From positions 1-28,282 of IMG/VR virus record IMGVR_UViG_3300022690_000579: DNA of 28,282 nucleotides. One strand, 5' to 3'. How positions within the stretch are numbered: the stretch's first letter is position 1; every line of letters begins with the position of its first letter. Both the position numbers and the translations under genes were made by a program. The notes under the pieces were generated by a model. That model worked only from the letters and a program-made list of their open reading frames with translations. It made no database searches and was not told the origin of the DNA. Below, in pieces: positions 3,624-15,613 of the stretch. The stretch is from a virus. Its lineage: Duplodnaviria; Caudoviricetes.

Positions 3624-3911
3624 ATGCCTGATGCTTCCATACTAGAACCTTTAGGATCACTGATAGGTATGGTGATCATAGTCTGGTTTTTTCTGAATCA
3701 TATTACCAAAGAAGGAAAAACACATACTGAACATCTTAAAGAAATAAGCACAACTAATCGTGCCGAATCACAATCGCGTAAGGACGAGATGATGAAACAT
3801 CTTGATAAAAATACAGAAGTCATTAGCGAGAATACAAAACAATCAGGTGAAACTTCTACAGTATTGGGTCAAACTAATGATATCCTAAGAAGAATTCATG
3901 ATGGGAAGTAA
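3624..3911 (+). CDS. Holin-like single-pass membrane protein
   Basis: N-terminal hydrophobic helix LGSLIGMVIIVWFFL followed by a charged coiled-coil tail, a BhlA/UviB-like layout. Confidence 0.5.
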   Translation: MPDASILEPLGSLIGMVIIVWFFLNHITKEGKTHTEHLKEISTTNRAESQSRKDEMMKHLDKNTEVISENTKQSGETSTVLGQTNDILRRIHDGK

Positions 3912-4081
3912 TGATGAAAAGAAATGATGAAAAGAAGACCAAACAATTAATGCAGGCTGAAAGGTATATCCATTCAGTAGAACCAAATTTTGATAATTGG
4001 ACTACAGCTGTTGATATTAAAAAGCTCATACGAGATGCTTACATAGCTGGTCAGAATGAAATAGATGTCTCCAAACAATAA
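3911..4081 (+). CDS. Small hypothetical protein (56 aa; not in ORF track)
   Basis: TAATG-coupled to the upstream gene; MMKRNDEKKTKQLMQAERYIHSVEPNFDNWTTAVDIKKLIRDAYIAGQNEIDVSKQ; overlaps the terL start. Confidence 0.55.
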   Translation: MMKRNDEKKTKQLMQAERYIHSVEPNFDNWTTAVDIKKLIRDAYIAGQNEIDVSKQ

Positions 4082-5708
4082 CGAGTGGCGCCCCACAAAA
4101 AAGCAATCTCTATTTCTATCTATTCCTTTATCTGTAAAAGAAGCATTCTATGCAGGTGCTCTTCATGCTGGTAAGACAGATGTCCTTCTTCTATATCCTA
4201 TACTGAGAAGATGGCATGAGAATTCGGAATTCAAAGCTATATTTCTTCGTAGAACTTTTCCAGAGCTTAAAAATGAGGTCATACCACGTTCAAAGAAATT
4301 ATTTAGGATGGTTGGGGGAAAGTATAATCAGAATGATAAGGTATGGGAATTCAACACGGGCCTTAATCATTCTAAAAGTCCACAGGGATCCGGGGCTTTA
4401 TTCTTTTTCTGTCACTGTGAAAACGAAGATGATGTTCATAACTATGATTCAATGCAGCCTAATTACGCTGCCTTCGATGAGTTAACATCTTTTACTGGAT
4501 GGCAATACATTTATATAACAATAGAAAGAGTTAGGGCAAAATTAGGATCATCTTTACCCCAGATTGTTAGAAGTGCAAGTAATCCTGGTAATACAGGACA
4601 TAATTGGGTTAGAAAAAGATTTATTGATCCTTACCCTGAAGGGGGGAAAATTATACGTGATCCATCAGGTTCTAAGAGAATTTTCATCCCCGCGACGATT
4701 TATGATAATCCCCATACGGATCCTAATTATCTTAGAAATTTAGAATCATTACCAGAAGCAGAGAAGCAAGCCAAGCTCTATGGTAATTGGGATGCGTATG
4801 AAGGATCAGTGTTTGATGAATTTAGAGACAGAAAGTATCCTGATGAACCTGACAATGCATTACACGTAATAGATTCATTTGATATACCGGAATGGTGGCC
4901 CAAAATTGTTGTAGGGGATTGGGGAATGCGTGCCATGACCTGGGTGGGTTATCTAGCCATTTCCCCAGAAAGGCGAGTCTACCTTTATAGGGAGCAGACT
5001 TGGAGAGGTTGGAAGATTGAGGAGTGGACTCCTTATGTTAAACAATTCATTGATAAGGAGAATCCTCGTTCAGTTATATTTTGCCAATCGGCAGGTCAAG
5101 ATAGAGGTCAGGAACATACTATTCAACAACAGATATCATCTGCTTTAGGGTGGCCAGTTGAACTAAGTCGTAATTCTACTGGTTCGCGTATAGCTGGTAA
5201 AAATCTTCTTCATGAGTATCTTAGATGGAGACCAAAGCATGTTATCTCTGTTGAAGCCAATAAATATGATGAAGATCATGCAATGTGGATATTCCGTAAT
5301 CGTTCTATGGAGGAATATAATTCTTATTTACGTTCATTTACTCCGTCTGAGCCTGAAGTGAACCTTCCCAAATTGCAGATATTCAAGGATTGTAATGAAG
5401 AACTTAGAGTTCCTGAAATTGTAAATGCCATTAAAGCATGTGTATATGTAAAGGATAAGGATGGTAAACAGAAGGAAGATGTTGCAGAATTTAATGGTGA
5501 TGATGCTTATGATGGTATTCGTATGGGATTAGATGGTGTTGAAAGATTCTTTTCTGAATCAGAAGGTGAATTCATTAAGGTTCAGAGGCAAGAAGAATTA
5601 ATTCAGAAGTTGAGTTCTACTGGTAATTGGACCGCGTTCTATAGAAATATGGAGAAAGTTGAAGCGAAATCTGGGGGAATACGGCCTGTATCGAGGTATC
5701 ATCATTGA
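4065..5708 (+). CDS. terL: Terminase large subunit
   Basis: 547 aa. Adenine-binding PTKKQ, Walker A AGALHAGKT, LRRTFPEL, Walker B YAAFDE, motif III ASNPG, ATIYDNPH, LYGNWD, RNase H-like nuclease VVGDWG ... DDAYDGIR. Confidence 0.95.
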   Translation: MSPNNNEWRPTKKQSLFLSIPLSVKEAFYAGALHAGKTDVLLLYPILRRWHENSEFKAIFLRRTFPELKNEVIPRSKKLFRMVGGKYNQNDKVWEFNTGLNHSKSPQGSGALFFFCHCENEDDVHNYDSMQPNYAAFDELTSFTGWQYIYITIERVRAKLGSSLPQIVRSASNPGNTGHNWVRKRFIDPYPEGGKIIRDPSGSKRIFIPATIYDNPHTDPNYLRNLESLPEAEKQAKLYGNWDAYEGSVFDEFRDRKYPDEPDNALHVIDSFDIPEWWPKIVVGDWGMRAMTWVGYLAISPERRVYLYREQTWRGWKIEEWTPYVKQFIDKENPRSVIFCQSAGQDRGQEHTIQQQISSALGWPVELSRNSTGSRIAGKNLLHEYLRWRPKHVISVEANKYDEDHAMWIFRNRSMEEYNSYLRSFTPSEPEVNLPKLQIFKDCNEELRVPEIVNAIKACVYVKDKDGKQKEDVAEFNGDDAYDGIRMGLDGVERFFSESEGEFIKVQRQEELIQKLSSTGNWTAFYRNMEKVEAKSGGIRPVSRYHH

Positions 5709-6997: not shown

Positions 6998-9221
6998 ACA
7001 CACTGACGAGGAAATTCGTGTAAGTCTAAAGAGTATCATTGATCACTTCGATCAAGAGGATAGGGCTGTCCGCGATAGACAAATTAGAATGTGGCGTCGT
7101 CTTAAGCTAACCTGGGATGGCTTCCAGAAAATATGGTATAGTGAAGTCGCGCATGATTGGCAAGTTCAAGACGATATTCAATCAGATAATGATAATAATG
7201 ATGATCACTATGATAAGCCTATCAATGTATTTCGTGCGTATCTAGAGACTATTATTGCTGCGTTATCAATACAAGTTCCACCAGTTAGTTGTAGTCCAGA
7301 TGATGCTCAAGATCCAATGGACATATCAACAGCAAAAGCTGGAAATATAATTTCTGAATTAATCTATAAGCATAATAATGTTACTGTTCTTTGGATTCAT
7401 GCTCTATTCGTTTATTGCACTGAAGGTCTGGTCGCATGCTATAACTATACTAAAGAGGATGAATCTTTTGGAACTTATGAGAAGAAACATTATAAGGATG
7501 TAGATGAGGATCATTTCTTGTGTCCTGAATGTGAAGCTCAAGTGGATGAAATCTTTGAGAATCGTTCATTGGAGATGGAAGATCAGGAAATTCCAATAAA
7601 CTGTCCCGAATGTGCAACTGAATTAGATCCTAATCTACAAAAGACTACAATTAAAGTTCAGAGATTAGATAAGATAACAGATGAACCTAAGTCTCGTCAA
7701 ATTTTGGAAGTTTATGGTGGGCTATATGTGAAGATTCCCAACTATGCAATAAATCAGGCTCAGTGTCCTTATCTTTTCTTTTCACATGAGATCCATTATG
7801 CTGAGGCAATGGAGCAATTTAAGGAACTTAGATCTCTGAGGCATGATTGGCAAGCTAAGGTTGGATATGATGCTGGTGGATTATATGATCCCTATGAAAG
7901 ATGGGGTCGTCTAAATACTCAATATCGTGGAGAATATCCTGTTAATACAGTTACTATTCGTAAATGTTGGTTGCGTCCTTGCTCCTATAATGTATTGCCA
8001 GAAGAGCAGGCTGATGCAGTAAGAGAGAAATTTCCTAAAGGTGTTAAGGTAGTCCTAGCCAATGAGGAAATAGCAGAAGATCCGATAGAGGAACTTTTAG
8101 ATGATCATTGGACTCTAACTAAGAATCCTCTATCCGATTATCTGCATCATGATCCTCTTGGCCTACTACTTACTTCGATACAGGATATTACAAATGAACT
8201 TGTTTCTCTTACTCTTCAAACTATTGAGCATGGTATTCCCCAGACAATTGCAAGTCCAGAAGTTTTAAATTTCGACCAATATAGACAAACAGAAGTATCT
8301 CCAGGAGCTATATATCCAGGAAGAATATCATCTAATCAGCGAATGGGTGATGCATTTTATGAGATTAAGACCGCAACATTATCATCAGAGGTATTACCTT
8401 TTGGCAAGAATATACAGGAATTTGGTCAATTAGTTGTTGGTGCACCTCCCTCCTTATTTGGTGGTGCTCCCACAGAGGGTAGTAAAACAGCGGCTGAATA
8501 CTCAATGAGTCGCGCACAGGCATTACAAAGACAGCAGAACGTATGGAAAATGTTAGTTATATGGTGGAAAACTATATTTGGTAAGGCTATTCCAGCGTAT
8601 ATTAATAACATTGTTGAGGACGAACGGTTCGTAAAGAAGGATACAAATGGAAAGCATATCAATGTTTTCATTCGTAAGGCTGAACTACAGGGTAAGATTG
8701 GTGATATAGAATGTGAAGCAGATGAACAATTACCAATCTCATGGTCACAGGTAAAGGACACGATCATGAGTATAATGGAAAGTGGTAATCCTGTGTTAAT
8801 AGAGGCCCTTACTGATCCTGAGAATTTAGATTTTGTTAAGAAGATCATAGGTCTTCCTCAGTTTAGAATTCCGGGGGAAGCTGATAGATTAAAACAATAT
8901 GAGGAAATTGATTTACTGTTAAAATCCTCACCTATACCGAGAGAGAATCCTGAAACAGATGAAGAAGAGGAAGGCCCATCTATTCCAATTGATCCTGATA
9001 TAGATAATAATGCTATTCAAGCTAGTATCTGTAGAGGATGGGCAATATCTGAACCAGGACAATTAGCTAAGATAGAAAATTCTGAAGGATATAGGAATGT
9101 TATACTGCATCTTAGAGATCATACTGAAGTTGAACGACTTATGATGTTGGAACAGCAAATGCAACAGGCACAAGGTGGGGCACCACCCAGTAATGAAGAA
9201 GGAGCCGAGAATGTCACCTGA
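6990..9221 (+). CDS. Portal protein (P22-like, large) with zinc-ribbon insertion
   Basis: 743 aa between terL and scaffold/capsid. Segments PINVFRAYLETIIAAL, LLTSIQDITNELVSL, SKTAAEYSMSRAQA and a Q-rich C-terminus; internal CPEC...CPEC. Confidence 0.85.
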   Translation: MSEHTDEEIRVSLKSIIDHFDQEDRAVRDRQIRMWRRLKLTWDGFQKIWYSEVAHDWQVQDDIQSDNDNNDDHYDKPINVFRAYLETIIAALSIQVPPVSCSPDDAQDPMDISTAKAGNIISELIYKHNNVTVLWIHALFVYCTEGLVACYNYTKEDESFGTYEKKHYKDVDEDHFLCPECEAQVDEIFENRSLEMEDQEIPINCPECATELDPNLQKTTIKVQRLDKITDEPKSRQILEVYGGLYVKIPNYAINQAQCPYLFFSHEIHYAEAMEQFKELRSLRHDWQAKVGYDAGGLYDPYERWGRLNTQYRGEYPVNTVTIRKCWLRPCSYNVLPEEQADAVREKFPKGVKVVLANEEIAEDPIEELLDDHWTLTKNPLSDYLHHDPLGLLLTSIQDITNELVSLTLQTIEHGIPQTIASPEVLNFDQYRQTEVSPGAIYPGRISSNQRMGDAFYEIKTATLSSEVLPFGKNIQEFGQLVVGAPPSLFGGAPTEGSKTAAEYSMSRAQALQRQQNVWKMLVIWWKTIFGKAIPAYINNIVEDERFVKKDTNGKHINVFIRKAELQGKIGDIECEADEQLPISWSQVKDTIMSIMESGNPVLIEALTDPENLDFVKKIIGLPQFRIPGEADRLKQYEEIDLLLKSSPIPRENPETDEEEEGPSIPIDPDIDNNAIQASICRGWAISEPGQLAKIENSEGYRNVILHLRDHTEVERLMMLEQQMQQAQGGAPPSNEEGAENVT

Positions 9222-10410
9222 AGTAGAAGGCGCGATTGAAGATGGTGAACTATCTAAGGATCAGATTCTTGACCTCTTATCCGATGATTCTGATGAAAAG
9301 GATGATGATGAAAAACTTGAATTGAAGGAAGATGATGAAGAAGACGAGTCTGATAAGGAAAAGGAAGAAGATGAGAAGGATGATGATAAGGAAGAGAAAA
9401 AAGAATTAAAGTTAAAGGATGATGAAGATGAAGAAGATGATGAAGAGATAGTAACTCATCTTCATCGTAAAGAAATTCTCAAGGCATTTCCAAAGCTCTT
9501 TGATAAGTATCCTCAGCTTGAGAAATCTTGGTATAAGGAACAAGAATATACTGAGCTATTTAGCACGTTAGGTGATGCTAAAGAAGTTCTAGAAAAAGCA
9601 GAAACACTAGATGATTATGAAAAATCACTGATGGAAGGTGATACGGAGTCCATTCTCCAGGCAGTTAAAGATAGTGATGATAAAGATACTTGGAATAAAG
9701 TAGTAGATGATTATCTTCCTACCTTAGCTAAAGTTGATGAGAAGGCTTATTTTCATGTTCTAGGTGAGGTTATCAAAAATACTATCATAAGTATGTCAGG
9801 TGAGGCTAAAAAAACTGATAATAAACAATTACAAGCTGCTGCTCAGTTAGTTAATCAATTTGTATTTGGAACATCAGAATTTCAGCCTACGGAAAAACTA
9901 TCTAAGACTAATGATACAGGAAATGATAAATTAGAAGCTGAACGTGAAGAATTCATGCAAGAAAGATTTGAAACAGCGAGGGACGAGCTAGATACTAAAA
10001 TTCAGAATGTTCTTAAGTCTAATGTAACAGAATATATTGATCCGAAAGATGCAATGTCTTCGTATGTAAAGAAACAAGCAATTAGAGAAGTAATGGAAGA
10101 TATTCAGGAGAGAATTTCTCAAGATGCTTCCTTCGCGAAAGTTCTTGATAAGTTATGGATAACATCAAGAGACAATAAATTCTCACCAGTAACTACTAAG
10201 AAAATTCGTTCTGTTTATCTATCTAAGGCTCAAACACTTTTACCGTCTGTAATCAAAAGAATCCGTATAGAAGCCTTAAAGGATTCGGGCAAGAGGACTA
10301 CAGATAGTAGAAGTAAGAGTCCAGAGAGAACAAGGGTAAGATCCTCCCATAAAGGATCAGATAATGATGGAAAGGGGATGTCAACCATAGATTTTTTCAA
10401 TCAGGATTAA
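9211..10410 (+). CDS. Capsid scaffolding protein
   Basis: Between portal and capsid. Extremely acidic N-terminus, helical body, basic C-terminal tail. ATG at 9211 (SD ggag at 9201) preferred over the 9175 start. Confidence 0.7.
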   Translation: MSPEVEGAIEDGELSKDQILDLLSDDSDEKDDDEKLELKEDDEEDESDKEKEEDEKDDDKEEKKELKLKDDEDEEDDEEIVTHLHRKEILKAFPKLFDKYPQLEKSWYKEQEYTELFSTLGDAKEVLEKAETLDDYEKSLMEGDTESILQAVKDSDDKDTWNKVVDDYLPTLAKVDEKAYFHVLGEVIKNTIISMSGEAKKTDNKQLQAAAQLVNQFVFGTSEFQPTEKLSKTNDTGNDKLEAEREEFMQERFETARDELDTKIQNVLKSNVTEYIDPKDAMSSYVKKQAIREVMEDIQERISQDASFAKVLDKLWITSRDNKFSPVTTKKIRSVYLSKAQTLLPSVIKRIRIEALKDSGKRTTDSRSKSPERTRVRSSHKGSDNDGKGMSTIDFFNQD

Positions 10411-10450
10411 GGAGAATATCTATACTAGAAATAGTATGGATTAAAAAATG
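10409..10450 (+). promoter_or_regulatory. Capsid-gene translation initiation region: SD separated from ATG by a GAAA-tetraloop hairpin
   Basis: aaggaga (10409-10415), then stem atctatacta-GAAA-tagtatggat (10418-10441), then ATG at 10448. Confidence 0.55.
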
Positions 10451-11701
10451 CCTGCTTTAACAGAGGTTCAAGTAGAAGGATTGGAACTCGAAAGAGTTAT
10501 TCCAAAGATTCGTGTTGTGTTTGAAAGAGATGATAAATTCTATTCAAACATTAAAAAGAGGGATGTGCAGAAGATATCTAATAGGCAAATGCGCGTTCCT
10601 CTTGAGCTGCGACCTGGTGGATCATTTGGATATTTTAATCCCGATGGTGGTGATCTAGGACGTGGTGGCGCACCGCAATTTGATAAGGCTGTGCTAACTC
10701 CTGTATTTGTTAGTGAAGCTATTGAATACACGAAGTTGGCTCAGTGGGCAACTGATGATGCTCGCAAGGCTATTATCAATTCTGTGCGCAGACTAACGGC
10801 TACTGCATTAGATGAACTCCGACGACAATTGGATTCTCAAATGATGCAGGCTGGTGATGGTGTTGTTGGCACCATTACTACTGTTGCTACAGCAGGTGGT
10901 GTTGATACTTATACTATGACCACAGATGGATTTGGTGCACGCCTAGTCCGTTTCGGTCAGACAGTGCAAGTATTTGATACTACATTGGCAACTCTCCGTG
11001 GTAGTGGAGAGATTACTCTTTGGGATATTGCAAATAAGACTATTGATGTTACTCCTGCGGTAGCTGGTGCTGTTGCAACTGATGTTATTGTTGTTAACGG
11101 TATTGCTACACCTACCTCATTGCCTGCTCTTTTTGGTGTTCCTTATCATCATTCCAATGCATCTACAGGAACATGGCTAGGCTTCTCTAGAGCATCTACT
11201 CCTGAAATTAGAAGTAATAGGGTTAATGGTGCTTCGGCTGCATTAACTCTTCCTCTACCACGTCTTGCTATCAATCTGATCGGCGATCGCGTAGGAATTG
11301 ATCATAACTTTAGTCCTAATGCATGGATGCATCCTGGGCAAAAGCAAGCATATGAGGATATTGGTCAACTAATTACTACTATTCAAACTAAGACGGGTGG
11401 CAATAAGAATCTTGATATGTATTTTGATGATATGCAAATGGCTGGTGCTCCGGTGAAGACTAGCTATAACTGGGATAGAACTAGAATTGACTTCGTGGTT
11501 GAGTCTGTATGGGGTAGGGGAGAAATTCTTCCTATTGGTTTCTATACTACAGATGGTAGGCGAATCTTTGAGATTCGTGGAGCATCTGGTGGTGTGGCTA
11601 CCTCTGAGATTTTCTACATGGTAGTAGGTATGCAGACTTTTGTAAATAACCCCGCGGCAACTGCCTATATTGATGCACTTGCTGTCCCATCAGGATACTA
11701 G
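10448..11701 (+). CDS. Major capsid protein (HK97 fold expected)
   Basis: 417 aa after the scaffold. Long backbone helix (INSVRRLTATALDELRRQLDSQMMQAGDG) and C-terminal VNNPAATAYIDAL are typical of coat proteins. Confidence 0.85.
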   Translation: MPALTEVQVEGLELERVIPKIRVVFERDDKFYSNIKKRDVQKISNRQMRVPLELRPGGSFGYFNPDGGDLGRGGAPQFDKAVLTPVFVSEAIEYTKLAQWATDDARKAIINSVRRLTATALDELRRQLDSQMMQAGDGVVGTITTVATAGGVDTYTMTTDGFGARLVRFGQTVQVFDTTLATLRGSGEITLWDIANKTIDVTPAVAGAVATDVIVVNGIATPTSLPALFGVPYHHSNASTGTWLGFSRASTPEIRSNRVNGASAALTLPLPRLAINLIGDRVGIDHNFSPNAWMHPGQKQAYEDIGQLITTIQTKTGGNKNLDMYFDDMQMAGAPVKTSYNWDRTRIDFVVESVWGRGEILPIGFYTTDGRRIFEIRGASGGVATSEIFYMVVGMQTFVNNPAATAYIDALAVPSGY

Positions 11702-13526: not shown

Positions 13527-14087
13527 ATGGATCAAAATAACATAATCGAGATCAATACGCGATTAGATGATTACTATGGTCAATTAGATAATAAATCGAA
13601 ATGGCGTATATCATGGTCTGATGATCAATTTGAAACTCGTTATGGAGACTTTGAAGATCGAAATAAAGAAGGACTTATTATTCGTCGTGTAAGTGAGTGG
13701 CGTCAGCTTCCAAAATATAGGCAATATATTAATCCTGGTCGTTGGCTACTTGAACGTCTCATGGAAATGCCTTCTTTCACAAGTAAGTTTGCAACAAAGT
13801 TGAGTTATGAGTGTTTATTTGCATTTAAGGTAGATCAGATTCCTAATTGGGTTGTAGTGCGAGCTATAGTAGAAACAGTAAATAAGAATATGGAACAGGC
13901 TGGTATTTACACTAAATATAAAGATCCTGATAGAGATCCTAAAGAAGCTGAAGCAAATAAAGAGGCCCGCTTGCAGGGATTGGAAGAGGCATTATTTGGA
14001 AATGAAACAGAACTAGGTGATGCACTAGCATATAAACAAGGAGTTGGATTTACCACTAGTAAGATAAAGGAAGAAAATAATGCCTGA
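13527..14087 (+). CDS. Phage hypothetical protein (head-completion region)
   Basis: 186 aa Trp-rich ORF (KWRISWSDDQFE, RWLLERL) overlapping the next gene. Confidence 0.65.
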   Translation: MDQNNIIEINTRLDDYYGQLDNKSKWRISWSDDQFETRYGDFEDRNKEGLIIRRVSEWRQLPKYRQYINPGRWLLERLMEMPSFTSKFATKLSYECLFAFKVDQIPNWVVVRAIVETVNKNMEQAGIYTKYKDPDRDPKEAEANKEARLQGLEEALFGNETELGDALAYKQGVGFTTSKIKEENNA

Positions 14088-14760
14088 ATTAATTCGCAAG
14101 AGAGTCATTCGTGCTCCTGTTAATCCTATGGATAAATCTACTATTGTTTCAATTTATCCTAGATCAATTAAGGAACGCAAGCCTACTATTCAACCTGGAA
14201 TTTTTGAAATTGAAGCAGGATCATATGAGAATCCTGCTATTCTAGTAGTTGGATCTAGTAGTTGGTGGAAGGAGACTGATGTAGATCAGTTTCTTGAAAT
14301 TCCCCAACAATCTATTCAAATTGCTGATTCATTTATACGTGATTGGGCTGTTGGTCTCTTCCAATGTAATATGGGAGATGCTATGCCTGGGCTCTTCTAT
14401 ATTCCGGGTAATCATGATATAGATGTGGTGAAGGTTTTTAAAGATAAGGATGATATTCTTCTTCTAGATATTGCTCAAAAGAAACAAAAGAGATGGTATG
14501 AATCTCTAGTAGAAGCAGCTGATATTTTGTGGGCTAGAAGTAATGGTAGTCCAAGGGCTATTTCTGATAATATGAGACTAGCCGCGCAGGATCTAGGTTT
14601 AACTAATAAGGCTTGGTTGGCAGATTTTACTACACTACAATTAGAAAAGTGCCCTGCATGTGGGGAACTCAGAGATAGTGATTTTCCTGTATGTAAGCAC
14701 TGCAATACGATTGTTAATAAAGAACAATATGATAGTATGCAATTGAGTGCTGCATCATGA
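14080..14760 (+). CDS. Hypothetical protein with C-terminal zinc ribbon
   Basis: 226 aa with CPACG...CKHC at the C-terminus. Confidence 0.7.
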   Translation: MPELIRKRVIRAPVNPMDKSTIVSIYPRSIKERKPTIQPGIFEIEAGSYENPAILVVGSSSWWKETDVDQFLEIPQQSIQIADSFIRDWAVGLFQCNMGDAMPGLFYIPGNHDIDVVKVFKDKDDILLLDIAQKKQKRWYESLVEAADILWARSNGSPRAISDNMRLAAQDLGLTNKAWLADFTTLQLEKCPACGELRDSDFPVCKHCNTIVNKEQYDSMQLSAAS

Positions 14761-14912
14761 AGATAAGTAAATATAGACTTGATATACCTCCAAATACCAA
14801 GCTATCTCCAGCACTGCGTCGTCTTATTGAGGAAGTTAGAAATGAACGAGATCATTTGGAATTAGCTAGATATGATCGTATACACAGTAGACATAATCGA
14901 TCTGTAGGATAG
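14757..14912 (+). CDS. YhhA-like cyclophane (triceptide) RiPP precursor peptide, 51 aa (not in ORF track)
   Basis: MKISKYRLDIPPNTKLSPALRRLIEEVRNERDHLELARYDRIHSRHNRSVG: leader-like SPALRRLIEEVRNE and core YDRIHSRHNR (YxRxHxRHxR). ATGA-coupled to the upstream gene; ends 5 nt before the next start. Confidence 0.75.
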   Translation: MKISKYRLDIPPNTKLSPALRRLIEEVRNERDHLELARYDRIHSRHNRSVG

Positions 14913-14917
14913 AAAAA

Positions 14918-15613
14918 ATGCCCACTCCAGCAGCTATAATGAGCATGACAGCGTCATTAATGAATGATACTTCACAGGTATCATATACTGATTCTGCCAT
15001 TCTCCCTTATTTGAATATAGCTCTGGATGATCTACAGGAGATATTCCAACATAATAATATTCCTGTAACTAATGAGGTAACCGGAACCTTAACTCCAATA
15101 ACAGCTGGTGTGACAGTGGTATCATTCACTACTACACCAGCATTACCAGCTAATTTAATAGAAATTCAACAGTTATATGAAAGAGCTACCGGTGTTACAC
15201 CTTGGATACCAATGACTAGGAGAGAATTTCTTCCTCTCACTAGGGAAGATCAGAATATCACACAATTCCTAATTTGGGCCTGGGTAAACCAAGAGATTAG
15301 ATTAATTGAATCCACAGCAAGTAATGATCTCAAGATTGACTATATCAAATCTATATTTGCCACGCCAATAGATATTGCTGATATAGCTACTAATCTTGAT
15401 ATCATAAATGTCCAGCAGTATCTTGGATATGCAACTGCTGCTCTCTGTAGTATGTTTATAGGCGAGAATGAGATGCGTGCATCTGTATTGGATAGTAAGG
15501 CTACTCAGGCTTTAGATAGGGAATTGGGTATTCCTATTAAGGGTCGACAGGCTATAACAACAAGAAGAAGACCATTCATGGGTCGGTATAGGCGTAGGGG
15601 ATATATTGGCTAA
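14918..15613 (+). CDS. Head-tail adaptor / tail tubular protein A-like
   Basis: 231 aa. N-terminal helices (ILPYLNIALDDLQEIF), central beta region and C-terminal helices (YLGYATAALC); positioned upstream of the nozzle. Confidence 0.7.
   Translation: MPTPAAIMSMTASLMNDTSQVSYTDSAILPYLNIALDDLQEIFQHNNIPVTNEVTGTLTPITAGVTVVSFTTTPALPANLIEIQQLYERATGVTPWIPMTRREFLPLTREDQNITQFLIWAWVNQEIRLIESTASNDLKIDYIKSIFATPIDIADIATNLDIINVQQYLGYATAALCSMFIGENEMRASVLDSKATQALDRELGIPIKGRQAITTRRRPFMGRYRRRGYIG

Follow-up and report, generated by a model that had tools for sequence, protein, structure and literature searches.

Bacterial Yhh clusters include the closest described relatives of the peptide gene considered here. 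Their precursor YhhA (NF041705) is modified by the radical SAM enzyme YhhB (NF041707) and by YhhC (NF041706). According to the excerpts of the two reports on this chemistry, YhhB joins Tyr C3 and His C2 to Arg C-beta (PMC11002830) and the product of YhhC is erythro-hydroxy-Asp (PMC12186529), and neither excerpt states a biological role for the Yhh product. A like core is present in ChlA/ChlB (PDB 9gmc, 9gm3), in which the radical SAM and HExxH enzymes are fused. In type I-A retrons (Ec78/Eco7), RT-msDNA sequesters PtuAB, the toxic unit, and Septu also functions stand-alone (PMC12819146). Lanthiphages likewise involve a RiPP cluster in phage defence and in defence islands, but the chemistry is different, and the abstract mentions neither an ATPase-nuclease partner nor a phage-borne precursor (bioRxiv 10.1101/2024.06.26.600839).

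The window analysed here, 28,282 nt in length, is an entire viral record with an estimated completeness of 61%, and contains terminase, major head and tail genes. Its peptide gene (Table 1) shares with bacterial YhhA the precursor model, the leader and the three Tyr/His-x-Arg triplets. In contrast to the bacterial clusters, the gene is located on a phage, alone, and is coupled into a virion operon; yhhB, yhhC and an HExxH gene are not adjacent to it in this 61% complete record. Two of its core residues, Ile in position 4 and Ser in position 6, also set the peptide apart and occur in none of the 93 bacterial precursors among the matches listed. Compared with ChlA/ChlB, the core is alike and the profile match is weak (E 0.002). 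In that type the maturase is a fusion, GNAT and glycosyltransferase-like genes lie nearby, none of the 25 long-flank loci surveyed has ptuAB, and the leader is another one: the window leader scored 41.5 bits on the type II leader profile and 4.1 bits on the type I profile. What appears to be new here is the repeated carriage of orphan precursors by phages and the link of one Yhh subtype to a toxin pair. No description of a yhh-Septu link or of a phage-borne YhhA was found in the literature, where the original Yhh paper or its supplement may mention flanking genes.

Table 1. Positions of the features in the window and, where a locus number (L) is given, in other loci
Feature	Position	Strand	Basis or remark
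Terminase large subunit or the larger part thereof	4065..5708	+	phrog_979, E 4.8e-38
Major head protein	10448..11701	+	phrog_14242, E 4.2e-7
Upstream conserved phage gene, 226 aa, with C-terminal zinc ribbon; 5' border of slot	14080..14760	+	PF13248, E 0.0014, below cut-off
Orphan YhhA-family triceptide precursor gene, PtuAB-linked subtype (type II)	14757..14912	+	51 aa
ATGA, overlap of the upstream stop codon with the peptide start codon (coupling)	14757..14760	+	sequence
Extended leader segment, residues 7-16	14775..14804	+	common to one mostly Acidobacteriota YhhA clade
Residues 17-30, conserved part of the leader, predicted to be recognised by the maturase	14805..14846	+	role inferred
Core, three aromatic-x-Arg triplets (Y39-D40-R41, H43-S44-R45, H46-N47-R48)	14871..14900	+
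SU10-adaptor-like virion gene; 3' border of slot	14918..15613	+	PF24175, E 6.9e-5, below Pfam cut-off
OLD-like ATPases in or near the upstream slot	L018 8714-10261; L026 8384-10057; L028 4004-5548
SIR2-domain protein in or near the upstream slot, type II	L035 8383-10530
HEC-01B-like gene in or near the upstream slot, type II	L072 4917-7004
Ten phage lineages besides the window	L001/L002; L003; L004; L141; L150; L005/L187; L176/L190/L175/L163; L165/L181; L166; L170

The initial annotation had proposed a YhhA-type precursor with a YhhA-like leader and a C-terminal Y/H-x-R core. The proposal agrees with the profile results: the peptide matched NF041705 RIPP_cyclo_YhhA over residues 17-48 with 44.1 bits (cut-off 36; E 1.7e-11), far beyond chance, and all three triplets are present, so that by its sequence it is a member of the known YhhA family. 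No model of Pfam, PHROGs or PADLOC matched it. In the alignment, the leader lies at the family spacing from the core, and the core triplets end three residues before the C-terminus. Among 64 aligned type II peptides, L20, R22, L23, E26 and V27 are at least 90% conserved, and Y39, R41, H43, R45, H46, N47 and R48 are invariant, a core conservation that is partly built in because the search patterns had fixed the core residues. The Asp of the window core is a candidate hydroxylation site, and Ile42, at core position 4, is a residue enriched in phage copies. The ORF, listed when the minimum ORF length was 40 aa, was indeed as first annotated: its start codon (ATG) and the stop codon of the upstream gene (TGA) overlap, and 5 nt separate its TAG from the ATG of the adaptor-like gene at 14918. 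It has a GC content of 0.36 and a GC3 of 0.17, and since 16 other phage genes measured had a GC3 of 0.15-0.28, the gene has adapted to the phage genome. Both promoter-like sites (37 vs 31.5 expected by chance) and terminator-like sites (3 vs 3.7) were at chance level.

The peptide gene stands within a same-strand run from the major head protein to the SU10-adaptor-like gene. There were 1207 homologues of the upstream 226-aa gene, and we surveyed the slot behind it in the best 80 of 274 confirmed viral stretches, with flanks of up to 4 kb. The adaptor gene followed downstream in 77 of these best 80 loci; the slot was empty (at most 39 nt) in 21 of the 77 and held other DNA, mostly small genes, in 56. 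The core motif was not found in the slot region of any of the 80. In three of four metagenome runs, contigs of close relatives join across the peptide gene and are 146-149 nt shorter, although joints at the 80% likeness used for this comparison need care. Because the relatives' contigs join without the peptide gene and the motif is absent from all 80 loci, the gene is a one-gene accessory insertion in the head-adaptor operon. Conservation of the YxRxHxRHxR frame in related phages, on which the first reading had partly depended, thus failed for these 80 loci and for the close relatives, but this absence does not refute the YhhA assignment because the gene is an accessory insertion. Neither the peptide nor the adaptor brought up relatives in exact-word searches of viral contigs. 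In many related loci (L191-L270), the slot between the zinc-ribbon and adaptor genes contains a recurring Thr/Val-rich protein of 70-90 aa, often preceded by a charged ORF of 60-120 aa.

Orphan copies of the gene recur in other phages. We made five pattern scans of viral contigs and one metagenome scan restricted to Ile, counted as lineages only loci with PHROG-matched phage-type neighbours, and merged those with shared peptides or flanking proteins. This resulted in 11 lineages including the window; the other ten are given in Table 1. The fetched flanks of the 11 lineages share almost no proteins, an unrelatedness that covers the fetched DNA only, since many contigs are short. The NF041705 cut-off of 36 was passed by eight of the 11, and the other three scored 35.7 (L002), 34.3 (L166) and 30.7 (L005). 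For the metagenome lineages L165, L166 and L170, the phage call comes from replication or recombination genes and not from virion genes. L141 is from a complete phage of 62 kb that has terminal repeats, where the copy directly follows terL; ATGA coupling to terminase genes was found in both L141 and L005. Copies lie among replication or early genes in L004, L165 and L170, and L002 is probably a temperate phage with an invertase/integrase. The L005 copy is a 23-aa core without a leader, coupled to a terminase fragment, and may be a chance match. The L150 peptide has two tandem cores.

The Ile-restricted metagenome scan yielded 29 loci, of which 13 were dropped as chance; among the 16 leader- or core-type loci left, one had a maturase match. 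A further 23 homologues were found among cluster representatives, without genomic context. Loci L168/L179 and L171 had no maturase match and no PHROG match, and were not counted as phage lineages, while L127-L139, L142-L147 and L149 were dropped as chance (leader missing, frame continuing beyond the core, or pattern interrupted by a stop). With tblastn against annotated phages, only weak matches on unrelated genes were obtained (best E 0.1). Peptides with two cores or two leader-plus-core units were observed in L150 (9923-10126), P0006, P0011 and P0013, and none of the 93 bacterial cluster precursors among the matches listed extends more than four residues past the core. In L005 (588-2603; also in L187), a terminase-like gene appears to be split by DNA that encodes the 23-aa core-only peptide and an ORF of 130 aa.

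No radical SAM (PF04055), YhhC or PtuAB match was present in the 61% complete window, in agreement with the earlier remark that it encodes no radical SAM protein. Neither a radical SAM gene nor PtuA was found in the five viral records searched whole, two of which are 100% and one 88% complete, and the two complete phages that carry the peptide thus also do so without a maturase. The orphan status of the gene is therefore upheld, and a maturase elsewhere on this phage, of which we have a 61% complete contig, is unlikely.

The bacterial loci present a different arrangement. A pattern scan of species genomes gave an estimated 170 loci, 120 of them listed: 31 type I, 62 type II and 27 chance matches, the last left out on the same grounds as the chance loci above. 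The maturase lies just downstream of 91 of the 93 precursors among these matches, at a distance of 37-181 nt in 90, as had been assumed when the gene was called an orphan; for the remaining two, no more than 329 nt of downstream DNA was available. In type I, rSAM and HExxH are fused in one enzyme, and the type is that of ChlA/ChlB. Its neighbours are a conserved unannotated protein of 330 aa and GNAT-like and glycosyltransferase-like genes (e.g. L006 4325-12874), and a plasmid copy adjoins an Argonaute system. Type II is a split cluster of yhhA, yhhB, yhhC and an HExxH gene, each above its cut-off in the one locus tested. Among neighbour families common to at least four loci, no exporter or protease was recognisable, which suggests that the product is kept in the cell. 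In L072, a 347-aa gene without a PADLOC match lies between yhhA and yhhB (8210-9250), the sole case of this arrangement among the long-flank loci of the matches listed.

Septu-like pairs accompany type II and not type I. In 62 long-flank loci (61 among the matches listed and one plasmid), 25 of the 37 type II loci had both PtuA and PtuB within about 5 kb, but none of the 25 type I loci did (Fisher 2e-8, kinship ignored); the other 12 type II loci had no full ptuAB pair in the fetched DNA. The initial annotation had called the host pathway possibly anti-phage, and this genomic link gives it a concrete candidate. The yhh-linked ptuAB spans five phyla and four gene orders (upstream in either direction, downstream convergent, and inside the cluster). 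All seven pairs tested consist of an adjacent ABC-type ATPase and HNH nuclease that match PADLOC PtuA PDLC00304 (E 1e-127 to 1e-150) and PtuB PDLC00339 (E 1e-59 to 1e-91), and belong to one PADLOC clade. Walker A is intact in 26 of 27 PtuA proteins. In the reverse test, 1163 sampled genomes from three groups gave eight non-seed PtuA genes of the clade. Six of them lie within about 3 kb of yhhB, two of the six in loci with peptides identical to known ones, which may not be new genomes; the pairs of the other two (G101, G113) had no yhhB anywhere in their possibly incomplete genomes. The two same-clade PtuAB pairs without a yhh cluster, L158 (7203-9340) and L159 (7899-10116), together make up one long branch. 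PtuA and YhhB distances correlated over 22 loci (rho 0.61) and after thinning to 11 loci (rho 0.45, p 0.004), while PtuB and YhhB distances did not after thinning (rho 0.15, p 0.20); correlations of this kind arise from co-inheritance alone.

As in the type I-A retrons, the host yhh cluster is partnered by a PtuA ATPase and a PtuB HNH nuclease. In the retrons, a separately made molecule sequesters PtuAB (PMC12819146), whereas the partner here appears to be a peptide-modifying cluster and not an RT with ncRNA. The yhh-linked proteins score far below the Ec78 effector cut-offs (NF041760, NF041761), with 139-154 of 500 for three ATPases and 41-58 of 150 for three nucleases, and a general survey of neighbouring genes revealed no further conserved family. 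In three type II loci, an OLD-like ATPase (HEC-04 / ATPase-Toprim matches) is in the upstream slot instead of ptuAB, and in one further locus a SIR2-type protein takes this place (Table 1); several of the remaining type II loci lie amid other defence genes. Because defence genes cluster, the adjacency may reflect location in an island; the type I plasmid copy beside an Argonaute system is a case in point. A PtuA query against plasmids gave no match at 1e-40.

All phage copies with a full leader scored higher on the type II than on the type I profile. Two of the five viral scans required a type II-like leader; the other three and the metagenome scan had no such requirement, and gave no type I orphan. 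The 11 bacterial leaders closest to that of the window among the matches listed, with 16-19 identities, all have the extended leader segment and form one mostly Acidobacteriota group. The PtuA proteins of this Acidobacteriota-rich group form a fully supported clade in a quick-mode tree, which cannot place the two yhh-less PtuA. The loci with these closest leaders have a GC content of 0.59-0.71 among the matches listed, compared to 0.38 in the phage. Of 401 genomes of the phylum Acidobacteriota, one contains a partial and distant homologue of the 226-aa gene (E 2e-13), a match too weak to assign a host. The nearest leaders differ between phage copies, which suggests several captures by phages, although peptides of this length are too short to prove it.

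We tentatively propose, at slightly less than an even chance, that the phage copy, most likely captured from a bacterium, is a counter-defence gene that keeps a predicted peptide-controlled PtuAB off. The host YhhB, YhhC and HExxH enzymes would convert YhhA into an Arg-rich triple-cyclophane peptide retained in the cell, and the modified peptide would restrain PtuAB in parallel to RT-msDNA in type I-A retrons. Infection may deplete or displace the host peptide and thereby release the nuclease. The phage would translate its own copy together with the head and adaptor genes, and the host enzymes would read its intact leader and core, with a product that keeps PtuAB off. Phages are known to supply look-alikes of a restraining molecule of the host, as with T4 Dmd and the pseudo-ToxI RNA repeats, but the mimic proposed here is a RiPP precursor, and to become active it probably needs the enzymes of the host. 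The core is whole, doubled in L150 and alone in L005, so that it seems to be the selected part. Two of the eight clade pairs have no yhhB in their possibly incomplete genomes and Septu functions stand-alone, which means that PtuAB does not always need a guard. The structure prediction of two PtuA copies with the unmodified peptide scored 0.00 and gives no evidence either way.

In its broader form, for which our confidence is a little lower again, the proposal would give the Yhh triceptide the part of antitoxin or sensor in an anti-phage system so far undescribed. A stapled peptide would replace the retron DNA and restrain a swappable toxin (PtuAB or an OLD-like ATPase-nuclease), and unrelated phages would repeatedly have captured the precursor alone, leaving the host enzymes to make the off-switch. 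Yhh triceptides are chemically characterised, and the phage copies point to a role for them in the control of a Septu-like abortive toxin. If this is true, a RiPP fills the place of msDNA in retrons and phages disarm the toxin via a 150-base gene, which would represent a new class of defence and of counter-defence. All parts are small and clonable, and the proposal can thus be tested directly in E. coli. It also suggests a search rule, namely that phage-carried precursors without their enzymes mark immunity RiPP clusters.

The same genomic evidence can be read in another way, in which the host peptide activates PtuAB, serves as its cofactor or is itself anti-phage, and the phage copy acts as a decoy that occupies YhhB/YhhC or yields an inactive imitation which blocks the PtuA site. 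Anti-phage RiPPs exist, as the lanthiphage abstract shows (bioRxiv 10.1101/2024.06.26.600839), and only one of the 16 Ile-restricted metagenome loci had a maturase match. In the seven viral lineages from patterns free at core position 4, Ile occupies this position in four, compared to none of the 93 bacterial precursors among the matches listed (Fisher 9e-6; three of six lineages without the window, Fisher 1e-4). A decoy that is not a faithful copy would account for this substitution and for the L005 copy, which has no leader, and both favour the decoy reading. However, three of the seven lineages lack Ile, and a Val-to-Ile change can stem from mutational bias in AT-rich genomes. A pure maturase sponge, moreover, needs the leader only, whereas the phage copies retain the complete set of three triplets, sometimes with a doubled core, which favours mimicry of the restraining peptide. 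We consider the decoy unlikely on its own, but the two counter-defence readings jointly hold about two thirds of our confidence. In the earlier interpretation, the assignment to YhhA and the absence of an accompanying maturase are supported, as is the occurrence of orphan copies in other phages; the phage's own relatives do not conserve the motif.

Less probable still is that the phage uses the host maturase for a RiPP with another purpose, such as signalling, superinfection exclusion or priming PtuAB against competing phages. The timing of the copies is not uniformly late, with L004, L165 and L170 among early or replication genes and L002 probably temperate, and this would suit such a use. 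No export signal or exporter accompanies the gene, however, and the phage copies found belong only to the PtuAB-linked subtype, though type I makes up 31 of the 93 bacterial precursors among the matches listed. We regard as very improbable a dispersed phage pathway whose maturase would be encoded in genome sequence absent from this record. The incompleteness of the record leaves room for it, but the more complete peptide-bearing records (two at 100%, one at 88%) have no radical SAM gene, the bacterial maturase is nearly always close by, and the peptide gene is a single-gene insertion. Equally remote appears a neutral passenger from the host that is of no use to the phage. The slot is indeed variable and expression of the gene is putative, but the gene shares the codon use of the phage and still has an intact leader and core, it is translationally coupled, and the 11 lineages, with nearly no common proteins in their flanks, always lack a neighbouring maturase.

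Two other observations concern the window itself. The terminase large subunit is apparently split: positions 1121-1753 have a weak N-terminal match to Terminase_6N (E 0.003), and the second piece (Table 1), 2.3 kb further on, matches phrog_979 from profile position 154, with about six ORFs between the two. At 3624-3911, a 95-aa protein matches phrog_1625, which is annotated as bacteriocin production or immunity (E 7e-8), and also has a weak match to a spanin family.
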